Below are positions 3,685 through 41,763 of a DNA stretch of 64,000 nt, piece by piece. Source of the stretch: a virus. The stretch is from IMG/VR virus record IMGVR_UViG_3300013947_000004; one strand, given 5' to 3'. The notes beneath the pieces were generated by a model, which searched no databases, had not been told where the DNA came from, and saw nothing but the letters and a program-made list of their open reading frames with translations. The position numbers and the translations under genes were made by a program. The stretch's first letter is position 1, and every line of letters begins with the position of its first letter.

Positions 3685-3702
3685 AAAAGGGAGGAATTAA
3701 TT

Positions 3703-4716: not shown

Positions 4717-4719
4717 AAT

Positions 4720-5931: not shown

Positions 5932-5943
5932 GGAGATGTTTAA

Positions 5944-6584: not shown

Positions 6585-6640
6585 CATATGTAGTTTGATG
6601 CAGTATTATTAAATCATCAAAAGATAAGGGAGGAATTTAT

Positions 6641-7036
6641 ATGGCATTTGTAAGCTTAGAAAAAGACTACTGGGATAAGATTGCACTATCCAATGGGATG
6701 TCTGACGACCATCTTACAGAAGAAATGAAGGATGAGTCGAAATCTCTCGCCGCAACTTGCGGTATTGCAGGACTTGTCGCCTTATACAGTGATGATAAGG
6801 ACGTACAGTACTGCGGGAAACAGTTAAAACAAACTGCCTCCGATTTGGTGGATAATATCATGTTTCCTGATATGATTAACCGCTATTGCGAGTTAGTCGA
6901 CCGTATCGGGGGAATTATTGATGACTTAGAACAGTTTGACGAAAAAGCTCTTGCAAACTATGTCAAAGAAGAATTGGAATCAGCAAAAACAATCTATGAT
7001 GATTGGAATTTATTTGGTAAATTTGCTACAATGTAA
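6641..7036 (+). CDS. Hypothetical acidic protein.
   Basis: ORF track; RBS AAGGGAGGA upstream. Confidence 0.55.
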   Translation: MAFVSLEKDYWDKIALSNGMSDDHLTEEMKDESKSLAATCGIAGLVALYSDDKDVQYCGKQLKQTASDLVDNIMFPDMINRYCELVDRIGGIIDDLEQFDEKALANYVKEELESAKTIYDDWNLFGKFATM

Positions 7037-7053
7037 TTTAGGAGGAATTAATT

Positions 7054-7338
7054 ATGGGAAAACAAGAATTAGAAAAAGTTGTCAGAAAAATTGTGCATTA
7101 TTGGGATACTGACACTACTATCAGATATTGGAATCAATATTGCGATGAAATGGGATATGAAGATTCTCGAATCGTACCCGTCGGAGATTCTTTAGACGAG
7201 TATTGTAAGGAAGCTTATCCTGACGTAACTGGATATGATGTGTATGATTTAGGTTGCGACGATGGAGAAATTATAGATTGGCTCGTTAATGAAATTTATT
7301 ACGGATATAAAAAATTGGAGGATTTGGATAGATTTTAA
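7054..7338 (+). CDS. Acidic protein with the YWNQYC motif (paralogue family 3 of 3).
   Basis: ORF track; TIRYWNQYCDEMGY; RBS TAGGAGGA. Confidence 0.6.
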   Translation: MGKQELEKVVRKIVHYWDTDTTIRYWNQYCDEMGYEDSRIVPVGDSLDEYCKEAYPDVTGYDVYDLGCDDGEIIDWLVNEIYYGYKKLEDLDRF

Positions 7339-7356
7339 AGAAGGAGGTACTTCCCA

Positions 7357-8625
7357 ATGGCTAGAGAATACAAGCCTTACATTTTACCAACTGAATTGCA
7401 GTTAAAAGATTACCAAAAAGATGGAGTTAAATTCTTACAATCCCATTGGGAAGCTATCTTAGCGGATGAGATGGGGCTGGGAAAGACAGTCACTATGTTA
7501 ATGTCTATTAAGGATTGGATAGACAAACAGAATATGGAGGAGCAGTGCAAACAAAAACGCTGTTTAATCATTACCCCAGCTTCCCTACAATGGACGTGGG
7601 TTAGAGAAATTCAAAGATGGTTTGGGGAGGAAAATTTCTATGACCTTTTCCCTCGTTGTGGTGATAGCTGTATCCAGCTTGATACTTATGAAAATTTAGA
7701 TAAATGGATTCTCCACGAAAAAGGGAGAAGGGCACTTGTCGATATTTGGAATATCGACATGGTGCTATTTGATGAAGCCCATTACCTAAAAAATCCTAGC
7801 TCTAAGCGTCATTTTTACGCTAAAGAAGTTTCTAAGAGGTGTACCTATATTTATCTACTTACCGGAACCCCCATGTCCTCTGGGCCTAAAGATTTAGCCG
7901 CATTATTAGATGTTATGTGGCAGTTAGATACTTTTGGGGGATACAAAACATTTTACCGGAAGTATTGTGACCCCTCTTGGAATGGTTTTGGATATGATTA
8001 TTCTGGCGCATCCAATCAAGAAGAACTACATGAAAAATTAAAGCCTTACCTGTTAAGAAGAACAAAACAGAGCGTTGGGCTTAAGTTGCCACCTAAGACA
8101 GTCAAGAATATTTGTGTTGGGAGTATGGAACAGGAATATGCCTCCACGTTCGAAGAAATGGAAGATTATAGCCGCATGGTGAATAAAGAGAAATTCCCGT
8201 TGGCTGTAAATTTTATAGATAATTTACTAACCAACGGGAAACGACCTGTTATATTCGTTCATCACAAATCATTATTGAAAAAGTTTGTTAACAAGTATAA
8301 GGATAAGTGTGTAGCTATCTACGGGGGGCAGAGTAAAGACGAAAGACAGAAATCAGTAGACAGATTCCAAGCGGGAGAAATCCCTATTATTATATGCTCC
8401 CTTATGGCATCAGCTGTAGGACTTACTCTTACAAGTAGTGATACTGCTGTATTCCTTGAATATCTTTGGTCGCCAGATATTTCAAAACAGGCAGAAGATA
8501 GAATACACCGACTTTCACAAACAAAGCCTTGTACTATTTATAACCTGTATATGAATTACTCAATCGAGCAACAAAAATTGCTAACAATTTATGCTAAACA
8601 ATTAAGAACGGAGGGAATTTTATGA
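7357..8625 (+). CDS. SNF2/RAD54-family helicase.
   Basis: Motifs LKDYQKDGV, ADEMGLGKT, FDEAHYLKN, LLTGTP, and a C-terminal helicase motif QAEDRIHRLSQ. Confidence 0.85.
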   Translation: MAREYKPYILPTELQLKDYQKDGVKFLQSHWEAILADEMGLGKTVTMLMSIKDWIDKQNMEEQCKQKRCLIITPASLQWTWVREIQRWFGEENFYDLFPRCGDSCIQLDTYENLDKWILHEKGRRALVDIWNIDMVLFDEAHYLKNPSSKRHFYAKEVSKRCTYIYLLTGTPMSSGPKDLAALLDVMWQLDTFGGYKTFYRKYCDPSWNGFGYDYSGASNQEELHEKLKPYLLRRTKQSVGLKLPPKTVKNICVGSMEQEYASTFEEMEDYSRMVNKEKFPLAVNFIDNLLTNGKRPVIFVHHKSLLKKFVNKYKDKCVAIYGGQSKDERQKSVDRFQAGEIPIIICSLMASAVGLTLTSSDTAVFLEYLWSPDISKQAEDRIHRLSQTKPCTIYNLYMNYSIEQQKLLTIYAKQLRTEGIL

Positions 8626-8840
8626 GTATGACCGCAGTATATATTATTTATTTTATTACAGCTCTTATCTACCTATTTCCTTTATGGTATGCTTTTAGAT
8701 TTGCTAAACGTAAATTCAAAGAAAAGAAATATGTAAAATCTGTATTATCTGTATTAGGTGGAATTATAGTTACAGCAATTTTAAAAGGTATCTTAAACGC
8801 AATAGTTAAAGCTTTTATTATGTCACAGGGAATCCATTAA
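8622..8840 (+). CDS. Small membrane protein.
   Basis: Two hydrophobic segments; 4-nt overlap with the SNF2 gene. Confidence 0.5.
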   Translation: MSMTAVYIIYFITALIYLFPLWYAFRFAKRKFKEKKYVKSVLSVLGGIIVTAILKGILNAIVKAFIMSQGIH

Positions 8841-8856
8841 GAAATAGGAGAGTCTC

Positions 8857-9135
8857 ATGAAGAAATTAATTATCTTAATATACTTATTATTCACCCCTGT
8901 TTTACTTGTCTCCGTTGCCAATCCAGTTACCATTTATGCAAGCCAAGAAAGCTACGACGCAGGTTATCAAAGAGGTTATTTTTGTGGTAAAAATAATAGA
9001 ATGATACCAGATAATTTATACGAAATGGATAGTGATTACCAACTAGGGTTCGATAAAGGATTAAGCGATGGGAAAGATGAATTAGCCTACGAGATAAATA
9101 ACCATCAGAGCAATTCTGTAGTGGTTTGGGGTTAA
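8857..9135 (+). CDS. Secreted or membrane-anchored small protein.
   Basis: N-terminal signal-like LIILIYLLFTPVLLVSVA; last gene of the plus-strand island. Confidence 0.5.
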   Translation: MKKLIILIYLLFTPVLLVSVANPVTIYASQESYDAGYQRGYFCGKNNRMIPDNLYEMDSDYQLGFDKGLSDGKDELAYEINNHQSNSVVVWG

Positions 9136-9176
9136 AAAAAAATAGCCGGGGATTATTCCCCGGCTTCTTTATTTGT
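9134..9176. terminator. Bidirectional intrinsic terminator between convergent operons.
   Basis: A-run, then AGCCGGGGA-TTAT-TCCCCGGCT, then a T-rich tail. Confidence 0.7.
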
Positions 9177-9611
9177 TTCCTCTTTTTCAAATCGGGATAA
9201 TGCATCACGACTGAACCGAGATTCGATAGACACATATTTTGCCGTCTGTGTTTGATTTTTGTTAATCGGATTTAATCCAGCCCTATCAAGCATATCTTTT
9301 GTAGCTTGGAATCGGACTGATTCTGATTCGGCGTTTCTTGCCAAGTCTAGCATGTTCTCTTTCATTTCCTGTGCTTCGTTCAAGAAGCTTTTCATCATTG
9401 CTTTCTGTCTATCTTCTATCGCCGTCTGGATTACTTTAAACTCCCCAACTTTACTCGACGGGGCGTATCCTGCCACTTCCAGAGCTTTGGATTTAGAGCC
9501 GTGTTTCATATATTCTGTAACAAATTTATTCTGTTGCTCGGTAAGATTGCGTTTCTTCTTTTTTCTTCCGGGCTTTTTAAAAAAATCATGCTGTACACCT
9601 TTATTACCCAA
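9153..9611 (-). CDS. terS: Terminase small subunit.
   Basis: LTEQQNKFVTEYMKHGSKSKALEVAGYA is the typical Terminase_2 HTH N-terminus. Preceded by a sigma-like activator gene. Confidence 0.7.
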   Translation of the reverse strand: MGNKGVQHDFFKKPGRKKKKRNLTEQQNKFVTEYMKHGSKSKALEVAGYAPSSKVGEFKVIQTAIEDRQKAMMKSFLNEAQEMKENMLDLARNAESESVRFQATKDMLDRAGLNPINKNQTQTAKYVSIESRFSRDALSRFEKEETNKEAGE

Positions 9612-9632: not shown

Positions 9633-9664
9633 AGCCCCCGTTTGGGGGCTATTTTTTTTTGTTT
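9633..9664 (+). terminator. Plus-strand intrinsic terminator lying inside the minus-strand operon.
   Basis: AGCCCCC-GTTT-GGGGGCT followed by A plus T9. The T-run is only on the plus strand. Confidence 0.55.
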
Positions 9665-9849
9665 AAATTAGACAAATACGTTGCTGGCATTACTCCAAAC
9701 CGATAGGGATGTAAAGGGCATCTTCGTATTGGGCAAATATCAACACATTTACTTGTCCCGTCACCACATTGGATACAAAATTTTCGAATTGCTTTTAGTG
9801 CTGATTGTGTTTTTGGCATATCGAAAGGAGTTGTTGGCTTCTTTTTCAT
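9649..9849 (-). CDS. Small Cys-rich (zinc-ribbon-like) protein.
   Basis: CIQCGDGTSKCVDICPIRRCPLHPYRFG. Confidence 0.5.
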   Translation of the reverse strand: MKKKPTTPFDMPKTQSALKAIRKFCIQCGDGTSKCVDICPIRRCPLHPYRFGVMPATYLSNLNKKK

Positions 9850-9851
9850 TT

Positions 9852-10301
9852 TTATCTCCTTTCTAAATACTCTTTCAGATTTCCGAACTGAGCGTAGTAC
9901 AAAGGGAGGGCTTGTCCAATTTTTTTATTAATTGTTTTCAGCTTCCCAAAGATAGAGCCTATACAAACGCCTCTTTCTTCTGCAATTTGCCTTTTAGGTT
10001 TCCCATAAATCACCGACTGACAAAATATATCCCAATCGTTTGCTCCTAGGATTAATTGCAACCAAGTGAGGAAATGGAATATTTTTTCTTTTTCCTCCCA
10101 GCTGATAATTATATCCTCTGGTGATTTACTCAATTTTACGTACCCATATTTACAGTCTGTAACTTTCTTTTTCTTTTTGTACTCGACTATATCTTTTGTT
10201 AATTCCTCTTTGCGGGTTATTCTTTCGATATTATCGCAAACGGATTCATCGTCAATCTCTCCATTTTCATATCTCCAGATTAATTCATCTAAGTAGTTCA
10301 T
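9852..10301 (-). CDS. Sigma-70 region-4-like / RinA-ArpU-type late transcription activator.
   Basis: Start refined to the ATGA overlap at 10301. C-terminal HTH KPKRQIAEERGVCIGSIFGKLKTINKKI. Sits immediately upstream of terS. Confidence 0.5.
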   Translation of the reverse strand: MNYLDELIWRYENGEIDDESVCDNIERITRKEELTKDIVEYKKKKKVTDCKYGYVKLSKSPEDIIISWEEKEKIFHFLTWLQLILGANDWDIFCQSVIYGKPKRQIAEERGVCIGSIFGKLKTINKKIGQALPLYYAQFGNLKEYLERR

Positions 10302-10558
10302 AACAGGTGGTGCCTCCTGTCTATCTCTAACCCACGGGGGCAAAAACGTCCATAGAATTTGTATTGGTACAACTCCCCGCAAGGGAGCTTTTTCGTCCCG
10401 TATCTACTTGGTTTCGCTTCTTCCGTTCCTTTGTAGCGTACCTCATTAGACAAACCTTCTAAATATTCCAACACTTTTTCTTTGCTATCGGATAAAATTC
10501 CAAACTTCCAAAAAGCTCCAAATTGTTTTACGTAAAAAACAAACATTTCCATAAACAT
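10298..10558 (-). CDS. Hypothetical protein.
   Basis: ORF track; operon packing. Confidence 0.45.
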   Translation of the reverse strand: MFMEMFVFYVKQFGAFWKFGILSDSKEKVLEYLEGLSNEVRYKGTEEAKPSRYGTKKLPCGELYQYKFYGRFCPRGLEIDRRHHLL

Positions 10559-10916: not shown

Positions 10917-13134
10917 TTACGGTTTCTGATAAAATCTTAATCCAGCTTCTTTTTGACGGTCTTTCGAGTACGAACTGATTCGTTTTAAATATCCAATAAC
11001 CCGTGTTGCATAATCAACATTTTTAGACCCACACTTTGTACAATGGTCTTCCGTGTTGACATTAATGTACCCACAATCGTTACAAACAGTCATTAAGCAG
11101 TTAAATGTCCAATAATTACAACCCAATTTACCAGTGATACACATTAAACTGTAAGCCTGTTCCTTAGTAAGCAACTGAGCAATATTTAAATGACAAGCCG
11201 ACCCGCCATCTAAGTATTTAACCGTATTTTCACCATGCAATGCAACTTTATCAAGCAACGTCAAATCTTGATTTTCTACAGGATAGAAATATGAGTTGTA
11301 ACAGTCTCTTGGTACATCTAATCCATCATGTTTATCCCATTGTGCATTTTTAACTCCTAATCCCTCAGCCATTCTGTTACTTTTATGACCTATGAAACTT
11401 ACCCTACCAACTCTAACTCTTTATTTCTTCTCGCCTCAAGAGCTTCCTCTGCCGTTTTCGCATTTTCCTCAGCCTCACCACAAAAACAACATTTCTTCAT
11501 ATATTCCTCCCCCCGGAGGATAAGTTTCATAGGCGGCCACGGTTCTTCCTAAAGTGTCTTTACACTTGACCATGGCTCCAGAGTTTCATTTTGTTATATC
11601 TCTGGTTCAGACTATCGCATAACCTCACTAGGAGGCCCCCCTTTATTTAGTCGTTCACGCTACCATTACGCTTGCGCCTTGTTATCCACTTCTGGAACTT
11701 CAAGTCAATTAAAAGGAGTTTTTTATGATGGGTTATGTATTATCCCACCAAGTCCCCACTCATTTTAGGGACAAATTCTGTATTAAACATGCACCCATAC
11801 GTTTCTGATGCTTTTTTATTGCAACCATGGATTACTTTTAAACACTTCGCTACTTCTCCCTGATATTTTTTTATATCGTCCTGAGGGTTGTATCCTTTAT
11901 ATTCCATTGCTTCCAACATACCATTGATACCGATAGTGCAGAATTGATGGTCGAAATTTACAAACCCTGCTGTATATGCAGGAAGCATACCTTGGGAAAT
12001 ATACCATTTAATAACTTCCCTGTGGGCGTATAAATACTTCTGAACTCTCCGAACAAGCTCTTCGAAATCTTCCCCATGAGTTTCATAGTTTTGTACATAT
12101 CTGTTCATATTGATTGTAATAACTCGGCATGAGCCTGTACTTACTCCGCCTGCCCCTAATGTATAGGAAAATGTATTATCCGCTAATTCGTTACGTAATC
12201 GGCAACACGACGCAAGGCTATCTGCACTACTTGATTCATACAAGAAGAAAGACAAACCTTTAGCCATATCTTCTGCACGCTTGTAAGCAAAATCTTTATC
12301 GGCAGGAGTTTTATTCTCATCAAGAAGCATAGCCGCCGTTAACACTGGGTATGTAAGAAGTTCTTTTTCTCTTTCTTTTCGGAACCAGTCCATAAAGAAA
12401 TCTTGCAAATTACTCAAGGATTCCCAATCTGGTTCTGACCCGTCTGGGAAACGGAAACCTCTAAAAACGGAAGCGAAATAGTATTTATCGAATACAGAAA
12501 TATTCCAAAACACACTTTGATTTCCCCGTGCCGCCGCTGGTTGGTTCAAAGCGTACACAACACCTTGCAACTCTTGGGCAATTTTCTTTGAATGCCGTTT
12601 CAAATAATAATTACCGTATTGCTTACGGGCGAAATAGTCGAAATACATTAAGAACTCTACGGTGGCTGTCGCTCCTGCCCAGTTCGTAGCAAGCTGATAT
12701 ACCAAGTTAACAAACGAGCCACAAAAGCTCTGCAAGTTCTTTGGAGCTTTGGAAGTACCTCCCAAACATTTCGTTCCTTCGAGTAGAAAGGGATACATCG
12801 TCACACTCGCACAATATGGGAGAAACGCCGCCAAGGTTTCATCATGTACGTAAATAAGGTGTTCCTCAATATCTTTCAAATATCTATTAGCTAGTTTTTC
12901 GCCGAATAGTTCTTTAATCTCATCGTAGATAATCTTACGGCTAACTTGAATGTTTTCAAACTTCCACATTTCTTCTCTTAATGTTCCCATATTCTTTTCA
13001 GAAACATTAGAATTGGAGTCTACAAGGGAAGCCGTGGCGTTATTTTGTTCTCCTACATAATACTTAATGTAATCTACTTTCTTCCCAATTTGTTCTGGTG
13101 TAAGCCAGTTGAAGTACTCTTTTTTGTTACTCAT
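10917..13134 (-). CDS. nrdD: Anaerobic ribonucleoside-triphosphate reductase; join(11767..13134, 10917..11369) after intron removal.
   Basis: Exon 1 ends ...FNTEFVP and exon 2 starts AEGLGVKNAQWDK. C-terminal Zn ribbon CNDCG..CTKCG and glycyl-radical motif RVIGYL. Confidence 0.85.
11370..11766 (-). mobile_element. Group I intron in nrdD (397 nt, no homing-endonuclease ORF).
   Basis: P1: exon GTCCCU pairs with GGGGAC (11757-11752), with U.G at the splice site. Last nucleotide is G (11370). Core-like GAACGACUAAAU (11656-11645) and GCGAUAGUC (11618-11610). Exons join in frame. Confidence 0.8.
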
Positions 13135-20818: not shown

Positions 20819-20871
20819 ATCTTGACTTTCCTTTCCTACATCAAACCTACATTAAACTAATATTTTAGTTT

Positions 20872-20955
20872 AAAAAAAAGTCTCAATATGGGAAGTCCGG
20901 CTCTTCCCATATCCCTTTCATGCTTTTATTATAGCACTTTTATGATGTTTGTCAA
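20872..20955 (-). promoter_or_regulatory. Near-consensus sigma-A-type promoter followed immediately by a hairpin plus T8: leader attenuator or ~50-nt sRNA.
   Basis: Minus strand: TTGACA (20955-20950), 16 nt, TATAAT (20933-20928). 10-bp stem ATATGGGAAG/CTTCCCATAT (20912-20886), then TGAGAC and T8. Three AAAGTGC boxes overlap the promoter. Confidence 0.55.
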
Positions 20956-20984: not shown

Positions 20985-23900
20985 CTACATATAATTTTCT
21001 TCTAACCTTGACGTATCTTTATTGTACGTAAATTCAGCAATATTAGGGCCATACATCCCATCACGTGCCTTATCTATCTTAATCCGGGTCACATTCTCTA
21101 ACTGTTGCTTTTCTTCTAAAGATAAGTTAGGGTCTTTCCCCGGACGCCAAAGCAACATGATAATATCAGCTGATGCTTCCAAATCTCCGGTTAGTTTGAG
21201 TTGGGTCATATTTGGTTCCCCATATGGGTTCCCCCCACGGTTTAACTGAGATAACATAACAAAAATAATATTATTTTCTTTTGCTATTGCTTTCATTTTA
21301 GTAGCTGATGCAGATGCACCTTCAAAATCAGAAGTCCCTTTTAAATAGCCAAAATAATCGACAAAAACCATGTCAACGGGGGCACCCATTAAGTTTTTAG
21401 CATTAACTAACCGAATCCGTTTTTCAATATCATTTATAGTATAATTGTTGTTGTCAAAAATAAGCAGGTGATTTTGTAACTTTGATATAATGTTTTGAAC
21501 TTGAGTATCACTGCTTCTAATATACCCTTCTACTTCTGCCATTGAACATCCGATAAGTTTCGCTACACATCGTTCTATAAGTTTTCCTTTTGGCATTTCT
21601 AGTGAGAAAAATACAACCCTCATTTTATCTTGACAAATAGCACGAAGCATAGCTTCGATAGCGAAATCCGTATTATGAGTTACGATGTAATTATTGCATA
21701 GATATGTATGTTTTGGACTGTCAACAGTAATACACTGCATTTCTTTCTTTTCTTTTAGTTTTTCTATAGAAACAATAGCCATTTTACTCCTATCTACCCT
21801 ACGGGAAATATTCCGACGTTTATTCCATCTTTCAATATGCTTTTTACTAGAGAACCAAACGTCTGAAATTTTTTGTATTACCAAAGTGTATTCGGGGATA
21901 CTCGATTTACCTTTCCTTACATGATAATGCATTTCACATCTTACACCTAAAGAATTTAAAAGCGTGTTCAGCCCATCTATTAATCTTTTTGATTTGCTAG
22001 AGAATTGGGTAAAACCCCTGTCGTTAACACATCCGTCCGTGTCGATAAGGCCACGAACTAATTCTATGCGATTTTCTATAGAGTCGAACAAATATTCATC
22101 AGGAATAAATTTTTCGCAACTCTTTGCCCCGTGAAATGTTTCTCTGAGGTAATTAACAAAAGGATTATTTTTCCCTCCGCAAAAACACATTTGATTGGGT
22201 TGTCCTTTATGAAGGTGCCAATGGCCGAAACTAGCCGTTAAATAGGAAAGCTTCTCTTGAATGTCCACCTCTGGGTTGGTAAATGTGATTTGCCTTTGAG
22301 ATAATCCACCATCTCCCAACATAAGCCCTATGACATAAGGGGAAATAATGTGTTCTCTCTTTTTGTAATTAACTTCTGAGCAAACGGGTATATACAAATT
22401 CCACCCCTGTTGCCCTGCCGTTCCTCTTTTTAATTTATACTCAGACATAATATCCTTCAAGGGTTTAACAAGCCAAGATTTACCTTTCATTATGCGATTT
22501 TGAGTACTGAATTTCCATAAATGGTCTTCGCAACAATCAACATAACTACCATCCTTAAATGTTACTCGGTACACATCTTTTTCCCCTTGGGGAAACACAT
22601 GAGTAACTTTCGTTTCTTTTCCATCTTCATCAAAGACTATATCCCCAACTTTTATGTCCCCCATTTTAACAAACCCAAAGGGCGTTGCAATCAAAGAGTC
22701 TAAAGTTAGAGCTTTACCTACACCACTATAAGCTCCGATAACAACAACCTGCTTCTTTTCAACTCTACGGATGCAATTATCTATTTGTTCAAAATGGGTT
22801 TTAAAACCCCCGGTAGTGTATATCTGACGCAAGTCATTCAAACATTCGCCAATGTCTGACGCTTCTTTTAAAATATCGTCGGAATCCTGCCCAATAGTGT
22901 TAAAGTATTTCTTCAAATCTTCTGTATCTTTGTGCCATCTTTCAGCCAAGAATTTAATAATATCAAGCCGAATCATTTCAGAACGGACGGTTGGAAGGTA
23001 ATTTTCTGCTTTTTGATATTCTTCTTCTATGGTAGAACACCCCGCTAAGAGCAATCTCATGACGTACTTGTCGATATGCTCCGTTGGGAGAGTCTTAGGA
23101 TTAACCCCGGCAAGGAGGAGGTCATTCATGTCTTTAAATTCTTCTGGGACAATCCCTACCCGAACTTGCCTTCCACTATCAATAGAACGGAAGTAATCAC
23201 GGACTCTAGGTAAACGTTTTTTGCCCGGTTCGTCATTATCCGGGAATATAACAATAGACGTTTCCCTCCGTAAGTATCTACTCAAAGCCTTTATTTGGTC
23301 ACGATGTATTTCATTTGAGCAATAAGCAACCGTTGGGAGTCCCATTTGATAACCACTGATAGCGTCCATGTACCCTTCAACCACGTACACACTATCTTTG
23401 ATTAAACGTCTCGCCTTATCAAGCCCATACAGGAAAGAGGATTTGTCAAAGAGAATGTTGTTCCGGCTGTTAATGTATTTCGGCTTTCCGTCAAATCTAC
23501 GTACAGCAATCCCAACAGTTCTTCCGTTTGGGTCAATAAGAGGAATTGTGACCTTCCCTTCATACCCTCCGAGTTCGAACGTTTTGATTGTTTCGGCTGT
23601 AAAACCACGTTTTTCTGTAAGATATGAACGGACATCTTCTACCCCAGCTACCCCTTTCTGCTTTTTACTGTCCATTTTCGCTTCTAAAGCTTTTTCATTC
23701 TGGTAGGTAGCATCATCTACCAAGCTAATGTTAAGCATGTTAGCAAGCTTCTCAATAGCCATATTGTACGTAATGTGGTCATAGTCTGCCACAAAATTAA
23801 TGACATCGCCACTGGAATTGCACGAAAAACAATAGTACATTCCTTTGTTATCAACGAGCATCGACGTAGGATTACTTGAACCATGGATGGGGCAAGCACA

Positions 23901-24014
23901 TCTCCACCCATTACCACTTCTTGTTAATTCGATGTTCGCATATTCTTGAATAAATTGGGGAAAATCTATCTTCTGTCTGATAATATCTTTAATGTCCATT
24001 TCTAATTCCTCCAA
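20985..24014 (-). CDS. Primase / DnaB-like helicase fusion, interrupted by an intein.
   Basis: CHC2 zinc finger CPIHG..CFSC; TOPRIM motifs VVEGYMDA and FPDNDEPG. Walker A GVGK|T is split. Walker B MVFVDYFGYL. Confidence 0.85.
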   Translation of the reverse strand: MEELEMDIKDIIRQKIDFPQFIQEYANIELTRSGNGWRCACPIHGSSNPTSMLVDNKGMYYCFSCNSSGDVINFVADYDHITYNMAIEKLANMLNISLVDDATYQNEKALEAKMDSKKQKGVAGVEDVRSYLTEKRGFTAETIKTFELGGYEGKVTIPLIDPNGRTVGIAVRRFDGKPKYINSRNNILFDKSSFLYGLDKARRLIKDSVYVVEGYMDAISGYQMGLPTVAYCSNEIHRDQIKALSRYLRRETSIVIFPDNDEPGKKRLPRVRDYFRSIDSGRQVRVGIVPEEFKDMNDLLLAGVNPKTLPTEHIDKYVMRLLLAGCSTIEEEYQKAENYLPTVRSEMIRLDIIKFLAERWHKDTEDLKKYFNTIGQDSDDILKEASDIGECLNDLRQIYTTGGFKTHFEQIDNCIRRVEKKQVVVIGAYSGVGKALTLDSLIATPFGFVKMGDIKVGDIVFDEDGKETKVTHVFPQGEKDVYRVTFKDGSYVDCCEDHLWKFSTQNRIMKGKSWLVKPLKDIMSEYKLKRGTAGQQGWNLYIPVCSEVNYKKREHIISPYVIGLMLGDGGLSQRQITFTNPEVDIQEKLSYLTASFGHWHLHKGQPNQMCFCGGKNNPFVNYLRETFHGAKSCEKFIPDEYLFDSIENRIELVRGLIDTDGCVNDRGFTQFSSKSKRLIDGLNTLLNSLGVRCEMHYHVRKGKSSIPEYTLVIQKISDVWFSSKKHIERWNKRRNISRRVDRSKMAIVSIEKLKEKKEMQCITVDSPKHTYLCNNYIVTHNTDFAIEAMLRAICQDKMRVVFFSLEMPKGKLIERCVAKLIGCSMAEVEGYIRSSDTQVQNIISKLQNHLLIFDNNNYTINDIEKRIRLVNAKNLMGAPVDMVFVDYFGYLKGTSDFEGASASATKMKAIAKENNIIFVMLSQLNRGGNPYGEPNMTQLKLTGDLEASADIIMLLWRPGKDPNLSLEEKQQLENVTRIKIDKARDGMYGPNIAEFTYNKDTSRLEENYM
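21672..22712 (-). mobile_element. Class-3 intein (347 aa) with a LAGLIDADG endonuclease in the helicase P-loop.
   Basis: Ala435 to Asn781. Ala1 follows GVGK. Trp in block B (CEDHLW), Cys in block F (EMQCITV), Thr-His-Asn end (IVTHN|T). LAGLIDADG motifs YVIGLMLGDGG and LVRGLIDTDG. Confidence 0.8.
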
Positions 24015-24020: not shown

Positions 24021-24142
24021 CTCTCAGAGCCGTTTTAAGGCTCTTTAATCTCTCGCAGGTCAAATTATACCTAGAATTGATGTTACCCCCAAAAAACATG
24101 CTCTGGAGGGCTGATTTTAACAAAAAACAGCATTTTGTGATT
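24021..24142 (-). promoter_or_regulatory. Promoter-plus-leader cassette, copy D (-10 at 24069-24064), driving the primase-helicase gene.
   Basis: Same ordered blocks as copies A, B and C. The 28 nt at its 5' end are identical to copy B. The ATG lies 50 nt downstream of the -10. Confidence 0.65.
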
Positions 24143-27214: not shown

Positions 27215-28327
27215 TTGGAGGACATGGGAAAACGGGGAAATGGAGAGGGAACCTTATACCAAAGGAAGGATGGTAGTTGGTGTTCGCAGGCTACAATAAA
27301 CAGACGCAGGATTACCGCTTACGGGAAGACAAAAACCGAAGCTAGGGCTAAATTACGCAAGAAAATAGAAGGTTTCATGGTTGGTGGTTCAATAAATAAG
27401 GCAAAAATAACAATCTCTAAAGGGATTCAAATATTTACAAAGGAACACAAAGAAACAAATGAAAGAACCTCTACTTCATACAGAGAGCGTCTAGATATAG
27501 TAAACAAATATTTGGGAGAGGAATTGCTAAATAACTTAGATACAGACATGGCGGAAAAGTTGGTGTCCGATATGATAGAGTTTGGGTATTCTAGGAATAC
27601 AATTAAGTTGGTTCTAACCCAAGTCAAGAAATTGTTTTACTTTGCAAAGAAAACTGGATACATTGAGAAGAATAGATATCTTGGAAAGATACGGATAAAT
27701 AAAAAGACACCGAAATTCATTCTTCCAAAACTTGAAGATGTTGTCCAAGTTATCCAAGAAATAAAATCGGTGCCACTGAAATATTTGGCTATGTTCGGTA
27801 TTTATACTGGTCTTCGTAGAGGAGAATTATGTGGTTTGCAATGGAAAGACATTTCAGAAGATGGTGTTATAACCGTGATGAGAGAATATGTCGGGTATAA
27901 GAGAAGTAATTGTGAATTAGCACCGCCTAAAAATGGGATTGTTGGTCAAAAAGTTCAATCCCCAGAAGAAGGAATTGAACTATTAAAAGAATTACAAGAA
28001 TATTATAAAGAGAAAAGAATAGAAAGCGAATTTGTATTCTGCAAAAAAGATGGCAGACCTCTTTTACCAAAAACAGTGTCCACCGAACTTGGCAGGAGGA
28101 TAAAAAAAATAGCCCCTCACGGGGCTGTCCATATTTTAAGACATTTAAATGCTACTTTCTTAGCGTCACGGAATATTCCAATTAGAACAATTTCTATGCA
28201 GTTAAGACATAGCAATGTTTCTATTACAGACAAATATATAAATGAATTGATTGGTGAAAACAGGGATGATATAAAAAATCTTTCATTGGGTTGCAGTAAG
28301 GTTGCAGTAACTAAGAAAGAACCCTAG
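27215..28327 (+). CDS. int: Tyrosine integrase.
   Basis: GLRRGELCGLQW and HILRHLNATFL...LRHSNVSITDKY (R..HxxR..Y). Extended -10 TGATATAAT at 27194-27202. An alternative ATG lies at 27224. Confidence 0.85.
   Translation: MEDMGKRGNGEGTLYQRKDGSWCSQATINRRRITAYGKTKTEARAKLRKKIEGFMVGGSINKAKITISKGIQIFTKEHKETNERTSTSYRERLDIVNKYLGEELLNNLDTDMAEKLVSDMIEFGYSRNTIKLVLTQVKKLFYFAKKTGYIEKNRYLGKIRINKKTPKFILPKLEDVVQVIQEIKSVPLKYLAMFGIYTGLRRGELCGLQWKDISEDGVITVMREYVGYKRSNCELAPPKNGIVGQKVQSPEEGIELLKELQEYYKEKRIESEFVFCKKDGRPLLPKTVSTELGRRIKKIAPHGAVHILRHLNATFLASRNIPIRTISMQLRHSNVSITDKYINELIGENRDDIKNLSLGCSKVAVTKKEP
28289..28310 (+). repeat. Tandem GGTTGCAGTAA x2 at the 3' end of int.
   Basis: Exact 11-bp tandem repeat. 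Confidence 0.8.
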
Positions 28328-28561: not shown

Positions 28562-28897
28562 ATGATTGACTCGGTGGGAAGGAGAATAGCGGAGTTAAGG
28601 GTTAAAAAAGGGATGACACAAAGGGATTTAGCAAACGCCACTGGGATTGGGCAGGCTCTTATTTCTAGATATGAAGCTGGGCATTACAAATCTTTGAGGC
28701 TAAGTACGGCTGTAAAATTAGCAAAGGCATTAGGAACAACCCCAGATTATTTACGCAGTCCTGACAGCAATCTGCCATATCCTTCCGAAGTATTAAATTG
28801 GTTAGCAGACGAAAAGAATTACTCAAAGGTTATGGAAATATACTATGAGGATATGACAAGAAGAATGAAAGAAAGAAATAAAAAAGAAGCCCCCTAA
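28562..28897 (+). CDS. XRE-family HTH regulator (candidate repressor).
   Basis: RIAELRVKKGMTQRDLANATGIGQALISRYEAG. Confidence 0.8.
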   Translation: MIDSVGRRIAELRVKKGMTQRDLANATGIGQALISRYEAGHYKSLRLSTAVKLAKALGTTPDYLRSPDSNLPYPSEVLNWLADEKNYSKVMEIYYEDMTRRMKERNKKEAP

Positions 28898-28912
28898 TCG
28901 GGGGCTTTTGTT
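28887..28912. terminator. Bidirectional terminator between the XRE and dnaE genes.
   Basis: AAGCCCCC-TAATC-GGGGGCTT flanked by A- and T-runs. Confidence 0.65.
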
Positions 28913-31900
28913 ATGCTTGCTTTGCTTCCATAAACTCAAATATTCTGTTGTTTTTTACTTTCATAATATAAACTTTGTGTTTTTCAAATTGTTTGTATTT
29001 GTCGTTGAAAATGACCAAGTCTTTTACATAATCGTTATCTCTAACTTTCACAAAAGCCATTGGTTTGCCAGTTTTGGTCTTTCTTGCTTTTACGTCTAGA
29101 ACTTCGTACCCAAAAATAGTTACATTATTCACTAAAGACATGTTGTAATTTTGAAAAATATTCCCAAAACTGACACCTAAAACCTTCGACTCTTCCTCTT
29201 GCTCGTTATACGAACCTTGTGTATATTTAAACAAACCTTTAGATTTTCTTTTATCTTTCGCCCATTCAATGAATTGTAACATTTCTTCACGATTTCCTTT
29301 AAAAACTCCAGCTTTTACTAAGTTTGACAAACAAGTTTTATTTACAGATATAAACCGTTCTATAAATTGCTTAAATTCAGTTGGGGCATCTTTAGGGAAC
29401 TCATTTTTCCCCACGCCTGCGATACAATTTAAACCAAGGGTGATTGTTGGGCCATCTTCGTCATAGTCCGAGAAACAATTCTTATGCTTGAGCGTCGGGG
29501 GGAGAATTTTAATTCCATCCTTCTTGGCTTCCATTACATATCCTGCTAGCTTCCCCTTGTCCTTACAGTTGGAGTCTATAACAGACGCCCAAAATGCGGC
29601 AGGGTAATGACATTTGAGGTACGCTGTAACCCAAGCTGTCATCCCATATGCGGCAGAGTGGGAATTACTAACAATAATCCCGTTATTCACAAGGACTGTA
29701 TGGTATGGATGTTCCATTTCTATATCATAAACGCTTTCCATTCCTATAAGTTTTATAGATACAATTTTATCTTCTTCTAGTTCGTATCCATTCCCGCCTT
29801 GTCTTGTTCTTCCCATTTTATAATGCTCCTTTTTATGACAGGAAGTACATAACCATTCTAAATTTTCTGGAGAATTATCTTTTCTATCCCCGTTTTTGTG
29901 GTGCATTTCAAATCTAGTTTCTCCATCGTAGGATTTACCGCATACAGCACAAGGGTACTGATTGTAAATTGCAACCTTTTTAGCTTCTTCGAATAAGTAC
30001 CAATTACTGTCCATTTTTTCTTGGAATCCCTTTTGTCCTTTTTTGGGAATATTATCTGAGATACATTCTCTGTTTGTGAGTCGGTAATCATGGCTAACCT
30101 TCACTCTATCCCCTTTTATATAGACGAGTTCTCCTACCTTTAAATCCTTTAACATTTTCTTACCTTTTCTTGTTGGGAATTTATGATTGGCCGTGCATTT
30201 TACATATTTCCCAGACTCTGTTCTTACTTCGTACACGTAGTTCTTCCCAGAATAAAAAATGTCAACAATTTTATTTCGTTTGATTTTCCCATCTATAATA
30301 GATAACCCATATCCGTAACCATATCTATTGTACTTTTCCCACAAACTGAGGTGCTTATTTTCTTTTGCCCACTTTTTATCTGTTTTTGTTTTATACATTT
30401 CTTCGAGAGTTAAGGGTTTCCTTTCATTTATATTCCTATACAGGGTTGTTTCTCCAGACAAGCAATGGTTAAATCCATAGGAGGCAAATGTGACTATGTT
30501 ATCCGTGAGGTCTTTCATTTGTTTTTCTGTATACCCTCTCTGGACACCTCTTTTAATCATATCTGCTATGACTGGTTGCATTTCATCTTTAACCTTTCTC
30601 CCTATGATACGTCGTAGATTGTCAGCTTCTCCGAGTGAGTATCCGCATATCTTTTGTGCAATCTGCATGATTTGTTCTTGGTACACGATAACCCCTTCTG
30701 TATCTTTTAAGATTGGTTCAAGGTCTGGAATATCGTATATAGTCGGCTCTTGATGATTTCTGCGACGGAGGAACGTTTCTGCCATTCCACTATCGAGAGG
30801 CCCCGGTCTGCCCAAGGCTACCACTGAGGACAAGTCCTCTACGTTCTTTATCCCCATCCTCAGAACTATTCCTGTCATAACATTTGATTCAATCTGGAAG
30901 CAACCTGCAGTGTTCCCCCGACGCAACATTTCTGCTGTATCTTTGTCATCAATGGGAATATTGGCTATATTTAAAGAATCAATTCCAGCTCTATGTTTTG
31001 TTTTTTCTATAATGTCAAGAGTTTCTAGCCCAAGTATATCAAGTTTTAATAAACCTTGAGCTTCTAGCTGATGAAAGTCATGGCACACAACCATATTATC
31101 TTTCTGTTTTTCAATAGCTGTCCAATTAGTAACATCTTCTGGGCATACAAGAACAGCCGATGCGTGGCAACCATAGGAGATTATGTGGCCTTTAAATTTG
31201 AGGGCAAGCTCTTTCCATTCTTTTTCCTCTTTGGTTTTGGCACCCATATCCTCTACATTAACTATGTTTTTGGATTTGGCTATACGGATTTTGGGTTCAA
31301 TTCCCAAAGCCTCTCCAGCTCTCTGTATTGCTGATTTATCTTGGATATAGTTAATAGTACGGGCTTGGTATACTTCCCCATATTTGCTCTTGATATATTC
31401 TATTAATTCTTGTCTTCTTGGTGTAGATACATCGGAATCGATGTCAGCTGGAGTTACACGTTCTGGATTAGCAAAACGTTCAAATACGAGATTGTATTTG
31501 ATTGGGTCGAGTTGCGTAATCCCCATTAGATAGGCTGTTAAACTCCCAACAACAGACCCCCTACCTAACCCCATAGGAATGCCGGATTCTCGGCAATGTT
31601 TTAACATGTCGTCAATAATGCAAAAATAGTTGAGGTAGTTTAGTTTATTTAATACGTCAAATTCATGCCGTACTTGCTTTATGTATTGGTTACTATTGGG
31701 AAGTTTAGAAATTCCCAGTCTCTTAAATCCCTCGTTACACCTCTTCTTTACGTAAGTTGCAGGGTCATCACAAAATACGGGGTAGTGTTGTCCCCCGAAC
31801 TCAATTTCCACATTACATTTATCAACAATTTCTTGCACATTTTCAAGAGCTTTAGTAATGTCCATGCTATTGCTTTTAAACCATTTCACAATATCTTCTT

Positions 31901-32558
31901 CACTTTGGAGATAATAGTCATCAGATACATAGTACTGAGAATCATCACCTAAACCTAGCCACATCTTATGTACTGGAATATCTTCCTTGTTCACATAGTG
32001 ACTGTCAAGAGTAACAATCGTCTTCCCTAAATTTTCCCATTTTTTATTGTACTCTAATTGCTCTGGAAAATTATGGGGCTGAATTTCTACATATAAATCA
32101 TCACCAAAAATAGATAATAGGCGGGAATACATTTCATCTGCGTTTTCTGCACTAAGTGGCCCAGCTACACACGCTGTTGTACATACCAAACCTTCGTGGT
32201 ACTGTTCCAGAGCTTCAAAACTAATTCTCGGCTTACGGTAGAAATGTTCATGGGCGTATGTGTCCAACTTCATCATATTTCTGTAGCCTTTAATATCTTT
32301 GGCTAAGATTACGAGATGGTACGTGTCACACCCATTTACCGTGATTTCAGAAGCTAAATAAAATTCACACCCCAAGATAGGTTTTACTCCTTGTTTTTTG
32401 CACTCTTGGTAAAAATCTATTATCCCTGTGCATGTCCCATGGTCGGTTATTGCTAAAGCCGGGTATCCAAGGTCTTTAGCTCTACCAACTAGGTCGGGAA
32501 TTGTACAAAATGCATCATGGAGGCTATAGTCCGTATGCTGATGTAAGTTAGAAAACAT
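28911..32558 (-). CDS. dnaE: DNA polymerase III alpha subunit (PHP plus polymerase core), interrupted by an intein.
   Basis: N-terminal PHP motif HQHTDYSLHDA. The YGFNH|SHSAAY motif is split by the insert. Confidence 0.85.
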   Translation of the reverse strand: MFSNLHQHTDYSLHDAFCTIPDLVGRAKDLGYPALAITDHGTCTGIIDFYQECKKQGVKPILGCEFYLASEITVNGCDTYHLVILAKDIKGYRNMMKLDTYAHEHFYRKPRISFEALEQYHEGLVCTTACVAGPLSAENADEMYSRLLSIFGDDLYVEIQPHNFPEQLEYNKKWENLGKTIVTLDSHYVNKEDIPVHKMWLGLGDDSQYYVSDDYYLQSEEDIVKWFKSNSMDITKALENVQEIVDKCNVEIEFGGQHYPVFCDDPATYVKKRCNEGFKRLGISKLPNSNQYIKQVRHEFDVLNKLNYLNYFCIIDDMLKHCRESGIPMGLGRGSVVGSLTAYLMGITQLDPIKYNLVFERFANPERVTPADIDSDVSTPRRQELIEYIKSKYGEVYQARTINYIQDKSAIQRAGEALGIEPKIRIAKSKNIVNVEDMGAKTKEEKEWKELALKFKGHIISYGCHASAVLVCPEDVTNWTAIEKQKDNMVVCHDFHQLEAQGLLKLDILGLETLDIIEKTKHRAGIDSLNIANIPIDDKDTAEMLRRGNTAGCFQIESNVMTGIVLRMGIKNVEDLSSVVALGRPGPLDSGMAETFLRRRNHQEPTIYDIPDLEPILKDTEGVIVYQEQIMQIAQKICGYSLGEADNLRRIIGRKVKDEMQPVIADMIKRGVQRGYTEKQMKDLTDNIVTFASYGFNHCLSGETTLYRNINERKPLTLEEMYKTKTDKKWAKENKHLSLWEKYNRYGYGYGLSIIDGKIKRNKIVDIFYSGKNYVYEVRTESGKYVKCTANHKFPTRKGKKMLKDLKVGELVYIKGDRVKVSHDYRLTNRECISDNIPKKGQKGFQEKMDSNWYLFEEAKKVAIYNQYPCAVCGKSYDGETRFEMHHKNGDRKDNSPENLEWLCTSCHKKEHYKMGRTRQGGNGYELEEDKIVSIKLIGMESVYDIEMEHPYHTVLVNNGIIVSNSHSAAYGMTAWVTAYLKCHYPAAFWASVIDSNCKDKGKLAGYVMEAKKDGIKILPPTLKHKNCFSDYDEDGPTITLGLNCIAGVGKNEFPKDAPTEFKQFIERFISVNKTCLSNLVKAGVFKGNREEMLQFIEWAKDKRKSKGLFKYTQGSYNEQEEESKVLGVSFGNIFQNYNMSLVNNVTIFGYEVLDVKARKTKTGKPMAFVKVRDNDYVKDLVIFNDKYKQFEKHKVYIMKVKNNRIFEFMEAKQA
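29664..30464 (-). mobile_element. Class-1 intein (267 aa) with an HNH endonuclease in DnaE.
   Basis: Cys699 (CLSGETT) to Asn965 (IIVSN|S). Block B CTANH. HNH motif HHKNGDRKDNSPENLEWLCTSCHKKEH. No penultimate His. Confidence 0.8.
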
Positions 32559-32689: not shown

Positions 32690-32692
32690 TGT

Positions 32693-32812
32693 AATCACAA
32701 AATGCTGTTTTTTGTTAAAAATGGCTATTGGGAGGGCTGTTTTTGGGTATAACTATACTTCCACGTATAATTTAACCTAGAGGATACGATAGGGGTAAAA
32801 AATGGGCTTGAG
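32693..32812 (+). promoter_or_regulatory. Promoter-plus-leader cassette, copy B (-10 at 32766-32771), pointing antisense into the 3' end of the late operon.
   Basis: Block-for-block alignment with copies A, C and D. There is no plus-strand gene downstream. Confidence 0.5.
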
Positions 32813-32818
32813 AACATG

Positions 32819-33247
32819 TTATTTCGACATTGCAATAGCAGTTACGACTCCTGTTACTATCCAAGCCAATTTATTTTGTCTTTCTTTAATTGCTATCTTG
32901 TGAGTTAGGGAGTTTATTTGCTCTGTCAATGTCTGCAAATTCTCTTTCGATGTTTCCAATGAGTTGTTTGCATTCTGTAATGAGCTGTCCGCTCTCTCGA
33001 TTTGATTCCTCAAGATTTCCAATTGTTTCTTGTCCGTCTGAGAGTTCTCCTCTAGCATTTCCAATTTCGTCTTGAGCAGATTGAACTGATTTCTCAGTTG
33101 ATTGTACTGTTCGTATGACATCTCTACTTTCTGACTTGGCTGTTCTGTTACTGTCGTAGAGGATGCTTGCGAAAAGAATCCCGGAGATAGCAAAAAGAAC
33201 GAGAACAATATAAAGAAAAACCTTTTTTGAAATATAATTGTCCACAT
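32819..33247 (-). CDS. Membrane coiled-coil protein, last gene of the lysis cassette. A second fully nested ORF lies at 32886..33245.
   Basis: ATG with RBS GGAGGGG. N-terminal hydrophobic segment, heptad-rich middle, C-terminal TM LAWIVTGVVTAIAM. Confidence 0.5.
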   Translation of the reverse strand: MWTIIFQKRFFFILFSFFLLSPGFFSQASSTTVTEQPSQKVEMSYEQYNQLRNQFNLLKTKLEMLEENSQTDKKQLEILRNQIERADSSLQNANNSLETSKENLQTLTEQINSLTHKIAIKERQNKLAWIVTGVVTAIAMSK

Positions 33248-33257: not shown

Positions 33258-33887
33258 CTATAATTTAGCTAATGCTTCGTGGCATTCACTATCAAAACGG
33301 TTATTTAAACTTTCTCTGAGTGACGAGCTATTCCACTCTGGAGTTTTGCATACATTATAGATAGCTACAATAAAATCATAGTCATACTGAGGGTCATCAA
33401 TATAAGACATATTTGGGTAGCCGCTATAATCATTATTGGCTTTGTTGTACATCGTATGACAAGCTTCTGTAAACATATTGAGGATTTCTCCCGGCCCATA
33501 CTGAACGGAACGGCTCCACACAACATCCTTCATAACCTCTGCGTGGTTTTCGATATGAAAATAGTTATCTGCTAATATTCTAATGGCGGGGTCATAGTAT
33601 GCGTGTTTAATATATTCGTATTGTGCTTCCCTAAATTCTTCTGTGTGGAACTCTGCAATATCTTTCCACTTCTGGTCAAATTCATCAGAGCATAATTCAC
33701 AACCTGCAAGTTCGTCAGCAAACCAATACCCTTGGGACTGGCACCATTGTACAAAAGCCTGTAAACTGCCAGCGTTTGAAGATAATTGGTATTCCCCATA
33801 CGATTTACCACCGGGGTCGCCCCAACCAGACGAGATACAGCCTACATCCCCATTAGATTCGTACTTAGATGATAATTCTCCTAACAT
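33258..33887 (-). CDS. Putative endolysin (lysozyme/transglycosylase-like).
   Basis: LSSKYESNGDVGCISSGWGDPGGKSYGEYQL, a Glu-Ser-x-Gly type motif. Immediately downstream of a holin-like gene. Confidence 0.45.
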   Translation of the reverse strand: MLGELSSKYESNGDVGCISSGWGDPGGKSYGEYQLSSNAGSLQAFVQWCQSQGYWFADELAGCELCSDEFDQKWKDIAEFHTEEFREAQYEYIKHAYYDPAIRILADNYFHIENHAEVMKDVVWSRSVQYGPGEILNMFTEACHTMYNKANNDYSGYPNMSYIDDPQYDYDFIVAIYNVCKTPEWNSSSLRESLNNRFDSECHEALAKL

Positions 33888-41717: not shown

Positions 41718-41763
41718 ATTAAACCACCGCCTTGTCTAAATAAAAACATTAGAATGTCACGTC

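Follow-up and report, generated by a model that had tools for sequence, protein, structure and literature searches.

The 64,000-nucleotide stretch of DNA analyzed here (IMG/VR virus record IMGVR_UViG_3300013947_000004, one strand read 5' to 3'; hereafter, the window) is that of a temperate phage with nearly all of its genes on the minus strand. Besides an integrase, a repressor, and terS, the window encodes DnaE, a primase-helicase, Erf, NrdD/G, a dUTPase, and a lysozyme-like gene. Four intergenic loci in it, designated A, B, C, and D, carry copies of one repeat. Comparison of these copies with each other and with their counterparts in related phages shows a diverged, selectively maintained, portable intergenic cassette, the predicted core of which is a host-type -10 box properly spaced from a TTG-type -35 box. 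The limits of the four copies in an nhmmer profile are as follows:

1137-1263, plus strand: cassette A
24144-24016, minus strand: cassette B
32691-32816, plus strand: cassette C
41756-41881, plus strand: cassette D

The four loci align across ∼125 bp with a mean column identity of 66%. An earlier note on the window, made by a model from the letters and a list of open reading frames (ORFs), had described them as a four-copy promoter-plus-leader cassette, and the repeat is real. When each copy in turn was left out of the profile, it was found again with E values on the order of 1e-15 to 1e-19 (1e-16, 3e-19, 2e-18, and 5e-15), and no other locus in the 64-kb window did better than an E value of ∼0.2, reverse-strand self matches aside. 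The nhmmer profile that the note had suggested, run on the window, recovered the four copies, and nothing else scored. All of the shared blocks that it had listed are present. The 19-base pattern TTTTTNGGNNTAACN11GTATAATT, which combines a T-run, GGnnTAAC, and GTATAATT, matches exactly the four cassette sites even with 2 mismatches allowed, while 0.01 matches are expected in shuffled sequence. No cassette motifs were found elsewhere in the window. A fifth, weaker copy had been proposed before the scaffold gene (59640-59690), but that site shares only a generic TATAAT and gives no nhmmer match at an E value of <100. The covariance models of Rfam 15 gave no match to any cassette, either at gathering thresholds or at E values of ≤1.

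Cassette pairs are 55 to 70% identical in every segment, with the exception of the 28-nucleotide (nt) 5' arm of B and C, where 27 to 28 of the 28 positions match (B, 24142-24115; C, 32693-32720). An identical 28-nt arm had been assigned to copies "B and D"; the arm exists, but it joins 24021-24142 and 32693-32812, the second and third copies listed. From the uniformly low pairwise identity, we conclude that the four cassettes are old copies kept together by selection and not the product of recent duplication.

Sixteen sequences, comprising paralogs and orthologs, were anchored on the -10 box and gave a near-ungapped alignment. Below, the prefix w marks a copy from the window, and L-numbers denote contigs of relatives. 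The cassette consists, in order, of an upstream block, a variable stem-loop with a T-run, a weak -35 box, a spacer of 17 to 18 nt, TATAAT, a purine-rich start region, and a leader of ∼50 nt with CTTGAGAGC at its 3' end. The best-kept blocks are AnGTATAATT at the -10 box and CAnAnAATGCT-N5-TTGT, an upstream block that lies at approximately -82 to -61 from the predicted start and is centered near -71. The strong conservation of the upstream block had been missed in the earlier note. The parts of the window copies are as follows:

1146-1160, plus strand: A, 5' block ATGGCTCTAAATTGT
1184-1189, plus strand: A, T-run
1188-1193, plus strand: A, -35 box TTAGGT
1191-1198, plus strand: A, GGTATAAC
1211-1216, plus strand: A, -10 box TATAAT
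∼1223, plus strand: A, predicted start
1235-1252, plus strand: A, leader hairpin AAGGCT/AGCCTT
1253-1259, plus strand: A, TGAGGGC
24142-24115, minus strand: B, 5' arm
24092-24087, minus strand: B, -35 box TTGGGG
24069-24064, minus strand: B, -10 box TATAAT
∼24057, minus strand: B, predicted start
24044-24026, minus strand: B, leader hairpin AGAGCC/GGCTCT
24025-24020, minus strand: B, GAGAGC, followed by a T-run
32693-32720, plus strand: C, 5' arm
32743-32748, plus strand: C, -35 box TTGGGT
32766-32771, plus strand: C, -10 box TATAAT
∼32778, plus strand: C, predicted start
41769-41782, plus strand: D, 5' block ATGCTTAAAATTGT
41791-41803, plus strand: D, stem-loop CCCTTCTGGAGGG, followed by a T-run
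41810-41815, plus strand: D, -35 box TTAGGG
41833-41838, plus strand: D, -10 box TATAAT
∼41845, plus strand: D, predicted start

TATAAT is exact in the four window copies and intact in 13 of the 16 diverged paralogs and orthologs, while the spacers around it are scrambled. The deviants are TATGAT in L092c, TGCAAT in L003t (the copy before terS in L003), and TGTAAT in L115D and L116D. The -35 boxes of the window copies are off consensus, as had been read earlier: TTAGGT, TTGGGG, TTGGGT, and TTAGGG stand 17 nt before the invariant TATAAT and fit TTGACA at 2 to 3 of 6 positions. Orthologous cassettes at the C site have TTTACA or TTAACA at 18 nt (L094c and L092c) or TTCAAC at 17 nt (L004c). The motif GG(T/G)(A/G)TAAC, 12 nt before the -10 box, is invariant in the four window copies and is also present in L108c, L003t, and L112C. 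GGnnTAAC is absent from the orthologous C-site cassettes L091c, L006c, and L004c, and the motif is restricted to the window's clade. Because relatives carry ordinary -35 boxes at the orthologous site, we conclude from the alignment that the odd -35 box of the window copies is a matter of shared ancestry and not of a new promoter class.

The segment from the upstream block to the -35 box contains a stem-loop, usually with a T-run after it, that varies in sequence while pairing is kept (GGCCCT/AGGGCC, GCCCT/AGGGC, TTTACCG/CGGTAAA, and GTGCT/AGCAT). The stem-loop and T-run are clear in L094c, L092c, L108c, L003t, wD, L115B, and L091c; in L115D and L116D, the stem-loop is clear by hand pairing, with one C-G to T-A change relative to wD. 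A terminator scan flagged the stem-loop of D as terminator-like, and the stem-loop with its T-run looks like an intrinsic terminator or insulator. The T-run before the -35 box also provides an A/T-rich upstream promoter (UP) region.

Downstream of the predicted start, the leaders have AAAAA ... CTTGAGAGC in common. A hairpin with an A-rich loop is present in wA, wB, L003t, L108c, L094c, and L092c. These hairpins differ in sequence and still pair (AAGGCT/AGCCTT, AGAGCC/GGCTCT, AGGTCG/CGGCCT, and GTGGCCCA/TGGGCCAC). Single-sequence folds vary among the copies, and their z-scores are modest.

Two further features of the 5' block were considered and rejected. A micro-ORF starting at its conserved ATG (MLFFV... 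or MLKIV..., 5 to 16 aa) has no ribosome-binding site (RBS), and its length is not conserved. A reverse-strand promoter in the TTGT(T/C)AAAA block, which reads TTGACA in D, has no usable -10 box.

The surroundings of the cassettes differ in orientation. A and B are oriented toward the genes that they precede, while C and D are antisense to both of their flanking genes. The genes and sites in question are as follows:

9153-9611, minus strand: terS
24012-24008, minus strand: RBS GGAGG, followed by the primase-helicase ATG at 23999
20985-23999, minus strand: primase-helicase with LAGLIDADG intein, first gene of the unit downstream of B
27215-28327: tyrosine integrase
28562-28897: XRE repressor
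28911-32558, minus strand: DnaE with HNH intein
32630-32602, minus strand: dnaE promoter TTGACT-N17-TATAAT, consensus
32690-32670, minus strand: hairpin of the late-operon intrinsic terminator, followed by T9
32819-33247, minus strand: 142-aa gene, last of the late/lysis operon, with a signal/transmembrane segment, a coiled coil, and a C-terminal transmembrane segment
34596-41717, minus strand: 2373-aa gene
41875-43245, minus strand: 456-aa late gene

Cassette A heads the sole long plus-strand unit, which consists of an ORF-poor 1-kb stretch followed by genes at 2271-9135. This unit is divergent from terL and is ended by a bidirectional terminator at 9144-9165. Cassette B starts directly after the stop codon of a 71-aa gene, and its 3' end lies 22 nt before the primase-helicase ATG; its TATAAT is 65 nt before that ATG, a co-oriented promoter position. 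Cassette C lies between the stop codon of the 142-aa gene (32819-32821) and the late terminator and dnaE promoter. It faces away from dnaE, with which it forms a divergent promoter pair with the terminator between, and it runs antisense into the 142-aa gene and the lysis genes past it. The 142-aa gene, which comes after the lysozyme-like gene (33258-33887), would be the first target of a putative antisense RNA from C. Cassette D lies between the 456-aa and 2373-aa genes, both on the minus strand, and points backwards: the stop codon of the 456-aa gene (41875-41877), the first target of a putative antisense RNA from D, falls in the 3' end of D, and the 2373-aa gene starts ∼40 nt beyond its 5' end. 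A copy directly before the primase-helicase ATG had been recognized earlier and exists; it is the copy at 24021-24142 on the minus strand, however, and not the one at 41764. The orientation that this placement was said to fix holds for the former copy only, since the copies at 32693 and 41764 are antisense to their flanking genes. The antisense orientation of C and D was missed because the copy labels had been mixed up.

Several other features lie near these loci. Between terL and cassette A, in the segment at 840-1080, the motif TTCCCGT(A/G)T is repeated and the palindrome TAAACAGTAAAACTGTTTA occurs; late promoters or sites of terminase recognition are possible roles for these sequences. The truncated terL at the start of the window (1-813, minus strand) looks intein bearing, as judged by eye only. 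The ORF-poor stretch between A and the first plus-strand genes (1290-2270, plus strand) spans ∼1 kb and has a GC content of 45% versus ∼38%. Conservation in L111 and L121 extends over its first ∼60 nt (TAACTTCCCTAATT...GCGAAGCCCCACCC), while the remainder aligns poorly, and Rfam gave no match to the stretch, even in a sensitive search; it may be a large noncoding RNA or a packaging-related site. The plus-strand accessory block (2271-9165: a SNF2-type helicase, an amidoligase-like protein, and unknowns) lies between terS and the start of terL at 813 on the minus strand. L111, L118, and L121 have the same terS-block-terL arrangement with other gene content.

Elsewhere in the window, nrdD is found as two ORFs (11740-13134 and 10917-11372) with ∼370 bp between them (11372-11740, minus strand), and the gap gives a subthreshold match to the group I intron model RF00028 (23.6 bits, E value of 6e-4). 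NrdD is intact in L118 (605 aa). Together, these observations make a self-splicing intron in nrdD likely. DnaE of L112/L113 (948 aa) lacks the intein, and DnaE of L115 was called as two ORFs with a 430-bp gap. A tRNA-Trp gene with a CCA anticodon is located at 63436-63509 on the minus strand.

Relatives of the window phage were drawn from IMG/VR, JGI, ENA, and Logan contigs, with protein identities of 54 to 94%. GenBank phages gave no nucleotide match, and their DnaE proteins were at most 35% identical. Scans of genome collections with the primase-helicase, as a single sequence or as alignment A2, returned only host DnaG primases (25 to 30% identity) and no relatives, and viral scans with the giant protein N terminus and terL returned nothing new. 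Strict cassette patterns matched only the same phage or one relative, and 13 of 14 metagenome pattern matches were due to chance. A homolog search with a 217-aa protein returned only a widespread 120-aa domain, with nothing from the A region in close relatives.

A C-site cassette was found in every related phage examined (L004, L006 to L008, L091 to L094, L108, and L112 to L117), giving 11 distinct sequences including the window's own C, and it is antisense in all of them. In each case, it lies between the ortholog of the 142-aa gene and the late terminator plus dnaE promoter, with the orthology of the flanks checked, and the primase-helicases of these phages are 54 to 75% identical to that of the window. 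Of the relatives, only the most closely related ones, L115 to L117 (∼80% DNA identity), have B and D at the same sites and with the same orientations. In L002, L003, L004, and L006, the primase-helicase gene directly follows its upstream neighbor and B is absent; D is absent in L009 and L112, where only 16 to 25 nt separate the two genes. An extra sense copy lies directly before terS in L003 and L111 only; the window and L118 to L121 are without it. At the A site, the flanks TTATAGTACCCC and TAACTTCCCTAATT are common to the window and L111, and between them L111 has an unrelated ∼130-bp segment, a promoter region, in place of the cassette. At B, C, and D, no relative departs from the cassette orientation seen in the window.

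The 5' arm occurs in two alleles, ATGCTGTTTTTTGT and ATGCTTAAAATTGT, which are crossed among orthologs: wB has the allele of wC, while L115B has that of D. This crossing indicates gene conversion between cassette copies. We infer that the C site is ancestral and that the other copies arose by cassette copying and inter-cassette recombination. Selection on the element is also suggested by comparison with its flanks. The core of B is 92 to 95% identical to that of L116 versus 72 to 80% for the flanking coding DNA, and C is 73 to 77% identical versus 42 to 50% for the adjoining terminator and dnaE-promoter spacer.

L112 is a prophage in a 209-kb bacterial scaffold. Genes for a host secretin, a sodium-solute symporter, and a class A penicillin-binding protein lie directly after its XRE gene (L112 13530-20061). 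The integration confirms a temperate lifestyle, and the adjoining genes hint at a host with an outer membrane.

The reading that we favor, and in which we have moderate confidence, is that of a portable ∼125-bp terminator-promoter-leader cassette, read by host RNA polymerase and probably regulated by the phage, in a family of uncultivated temperate phages. We are fairly confident that A, B, and C, at a minimum, are genuine promoters. As the earlier note had proposed, the data are best read as a promoter whose transcribed leader is conserved: TATAAT is kept in 13 of 16 sequences; A, B, and L003t, three independent copies, are co-oriented directly before transcription units; and A replaces the promoter region of L111. 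The 25 nt after B and L003t contain both an RBS and a start codon.

Several observations weigh against this reading. A consensus promoter scan of the window, which required a match of at least 4 of 6 at the -35 box, lists none of the four cassettes, because their -35 boxes match at only 2 to 3 of 6 positions. The window copies A, B, and C have a degenerate upstream stem-loop, and covariation in this element is weak, with 68% of cells paired versus 64% in shuffles and an equal score after a one-column slide. Among the C copies, those of the window's clade (wC, L115C, and L112C) have no leader hairpin, and the hairpin of L115B is weakened. The terminator scan of the window found no terminator at which the proposed antisense RNAs would end; on their strand, it gave as candidates only weak sites near 34.85 to 34.96 kb and a strong one at 47567-47588. 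Finally, D in L115 and L116 reads TGTAAT and GGGGGAAC. Since the key A of the -10 box is gone, the D promoter may be losing its function in these phages.

The alternative proposed at the outset was a distinct promoter class, in which TTRGGK/GGnnTAAC is read by the sigma-like protein encoded just upstream of terS or by a factor-modified polymerase. The genes concerned are as follows:

9649-9849, minus strand: 66-aa Cys-rich protein, just upstream of terS
9852-10382, minus strand: protein with a C-terminal helix-turn-helix (149 aa), just upstream of terS

Orthologs of both genes are found in L111, L118, and L121, in the usual position of temperate-phage late-gene activators. The late activators of many temperate phages are encoded upstream of terS, and the location of the sigma-like gene agrees with such a role. 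The invariance of GG(T/G)(A/G)TAAC in the four window copies and its presence in L108c, L003t, and L112C also speak for a specific reader. Furthermore, L003t keeps GGGTATAAC despite a poor -10 box (TGCAAT) and stands between the sigma-like gene and terS, where a late promoter would usually be located. The protein itself has an NCBIfam sigma70-ECF (extracytoplasmic function) match over residues 28 to 131, but at 15.6 bits (E value of 0.009) this is below the cutoff of 42.9. It has no sigma match in Pfam, PHROG, or PDB, and its single-sequence AlphaFold model (predicted local distance difference test score of 43.5) is too low in confidence for a structure search. The -10 box is perfect host consensus, the motif is missing from the orthologous L091c, L006c, and L004c, and ordinary TTTACA or TTAACA stands beside it in L094c and L092c. 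The motif was not found before terL or any other late gene in the window, and neither the window nor L118 to L121 has a cassette in front of terS. We consider a distinct class read by the sigma-like protein unlikely.

The cassettes had been contrasted with two promoters of consensus type, and both are as described: the dnaE promoter given above and a promoter at 20.9 kb (TTGACA-N16-TATAAT, 20955-20928). The latter belongs to a segment located after the primase-helicase gene (20860-20955, minus strand), in which TGC precedes TATAAT and a 10-bp hairpin, TGAGAC, and T8 follow. This order of hairpin, TGAGxC, and T-run matches that of the cassette leaders, and it is present in L118 with one compensatory G-C to C-G change.

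The layout of the 20.9-kb promoter, kept in L118, lends itself to a further alternative, in which the cassette is a tiny transcription unit or attenuator. A leader RNA of ∼50 to 60 nt would end at the leader hairpin and T-run. At C and D, such RNAs would act as cis-antisense small RNAs; at A and B, the hairpin would be a read-through checkpoint opened by an antiterminator, following the logic of lambda PR'-tR' or nut/put. Consistent with this, a hairpin, TGAGRGC, and a T-run follow the start in A, B, and L108c (with the variant TCAGGGC in L094c and L092c), and the leader hairpins differ between copies yet pair. Many copies also have a -10-like GAGAAT or GAGGAT 8 nt after TATAAT, an arrangement known from sigma-dependent pause sites. 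The T-run starts 6 to 9 nt past the stem, however, which is too distant for a canonical intrinsic terminator. The hairpin is not present in every copy, as described above, and the T-rich stretch of the C copies is the antisense of the last codons of the neighboring gene. No boxA and no N-like or Q-like protein was found, and there was no Rfam match. We consider a tiny transcription unit of this kind improbable.

A structural or mobile repeat with incidental promoter boxes, such as a miniature inverted-repeat transposable element (MITE) or Correia-like element, a recombination hot spot, or a replication or packaging site, is improbable. The cassette is indeed quasipalindromic: it gives reverse-strand nhmmer self matches with E values of 1e-6 to 4e-5, and D has 28-nt arms, 79% complementary, that are centered on the -10 box. 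Its copy number and positions vary among close relatives but are always intergenic, its 5' arms are swapped between copies, two copies are antisense, the -10 box of D is mutated in L115 and L116, and B and C flank the replication/recombination module. However, there are no consistent terminal inverted repeats, and no target-site duplication was found at the boundaries of the D or A insertions in comparison with L009, L112, and L111. With only four copies that are 55 to 70% identical, there has been no recent burst. The C site is orthologous over deep divergence, with TATAAT and the upstream block kept on either side of drifting sequence, a pattern indicative of selection on promoter parts, and the sense copies abut an RBS and start codon. 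A MITE or Correia-like element was rejected specifically: flanking inverted repeats are lacking, and the dyad similarity is only loose.

An invertible promoter flipped by a recombinase, with the antisense C and D as "off" states, is highly improbable and was rejected: the cassette is a promoter-bearing segment with partial dyad symmetry, a flipped D would lie ∼50 nt before the 2373-aa gene, and a tyrosine integrase is encoded at 27215-28327, but consistent flanking inverted repeats are missing (B and C have none, and A has only 15 nt at 80%), B, C, and D have the same orientation in every relative, and a flipped C would run into the late terminator.

The terminator-promoter-leader cassette that we favor has its closest analog in the PeSLs (promoter-early stem-loops) of T4-like phages, small repeats in which a sigma70-like promoter with A/T-rich sequence upstream of it is joined to a terminator stem-loop and which recombine and mark insertions and deletions between relatives (PMC2839356; PMC4122927). 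In both cases, a small intergenic composite motif is repeated within one phage genome; like the PeSL, the cassette would combine a sigma70-type promoter, an A/T-rich stretch upstream of the -35 box, and a neighboring stem-loop able to terminate upstream transcription. In both, presence varies among close relatives and copies recombine, as seen here for A, B, D, and the terS copy and for the swapped 5' arms. We draw this as an analogy and do not place the cassette in the PeSL family. No resemblance to the published PeSL motif was noticed, as judged by reading and not by a sequence comparison. The window phage is temperate (integrase, DnaE, and primase-helicase) and has four copies, whereas PeSLs number in the dozens, and its -35 box is weak, whereas that of PeSLs is consensus. 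The cassette adds a strongly conserved upstream block and a conserved leader, its stem-loop is degenerate in three of four copies, and its C site is stably orthologous and antisense to its neighbors. A link to ORFan shuffling and minicircles belongs to PeSLs and is not claimed for the cassette.

A precedent for the antisense copies is Pseudomonas phage PAK_P3, in which early antisense RNAs that cover structural genes were observed by RNA sequencing (PMC4933390). Here too, promoters in or at the end of the late region would fire against late genes, and the role proposed in both cases is restraint of late expression early in infection. The RNAs of PAK_P3 were measured, whereas those of the cassette are predicted from promoter orientation, and the antisense promoters of the cassette are paralogs of sense promoters that would drive replication genes. 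The antisense RNAs of the lambda oop/PaQ type are a further precedent.

Two other known arrangements are more distant. In lambdoid late units, a promoter-proximal terminator is combined with antitermination (PR'-qut-tR' and nut/put sites). The cassette likewise has a promoter followed by a hairpin and a T-rich tract within ∼50 nt, and several copies head long operons, but no boxA, Q-binding element, or N/Q homolog was identified for it, its T-run does not directly follow the stem, and some copies have no hairpin. Small palindromic repeats of the Correia/ERIC type can carry promoters, and like the cassette they are quasipalindromic intergenic repeats of ∼100 to 150 bp that can supply -10 boxes and terminator-like hairpins. 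In contrast to these, the cassette has no defined terminal inverted repeats or target duplications, its copy number is very low, and one of its sites has long been conserved orthologously. We conclude that a new promoter class is unsupported and that the cassette is a modest further example of a known sort of phage regulatory repeat.

How the favored cassette would work can be outlined from its parts. Host RNA polymerase with the primary sigma factor would start ∼7 nt after TATAAT. Because a poor -35 box is combined with an upstream block that equals the -10 box in conservation, the promoter is probably under the control of an upstream-bound regulator. Under this putative phage DNA-binding protein, which could activate or repress, the copies would form one coregulated set. 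Each copy would be shielded from transcription arriving from upstream by the hairpin and T-run before its -35 box. B would restart transcription of the unit that runs from the primase-helicase gene through nucleotide metabolism to terS, and A would drive the accessory block on the opposite strand. From C and D, antisense RNA would enter the lysis and tail genes and damp late and lysis expression while the set is on.

Taken further, the cassettes might constitute a small phage regulon. One signal acting through the upstream block, via a regulator or the sigma-like protein, would turn on replication and nucleotide genes together with antisense transcription into tail and lysis genes. This would be a built-in lysis delay, conserved family-wide at the end of the late operon and spread by cassette copying. 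We offer this extension tentatively and give it a low chance of being right.

Two lessons for annotation follow from these results. A promoter-like repeat can point against its neighboring genes, and an unusual -35 box common to paralogs need not mean a new sigma specificity. Two features merit follow-up: the antisense cassette found family-wide where the lysis operon ends, and the spread of cassettes to further sites by copy and paste. If the reading proposed here is true, this conserved antisense cassette would offer a simple and testable case of antisense lysis timing in a temperate phage, whereas RNA sequencing alone has been the source of most phage antisense RNAs described to date. The cassette itself would then be a ready-made regulatory plug in this phage family: its copying to a new intergenic site would shield that site against transcription from upstream, restart transcription there, and place the unit behind it under the same control.

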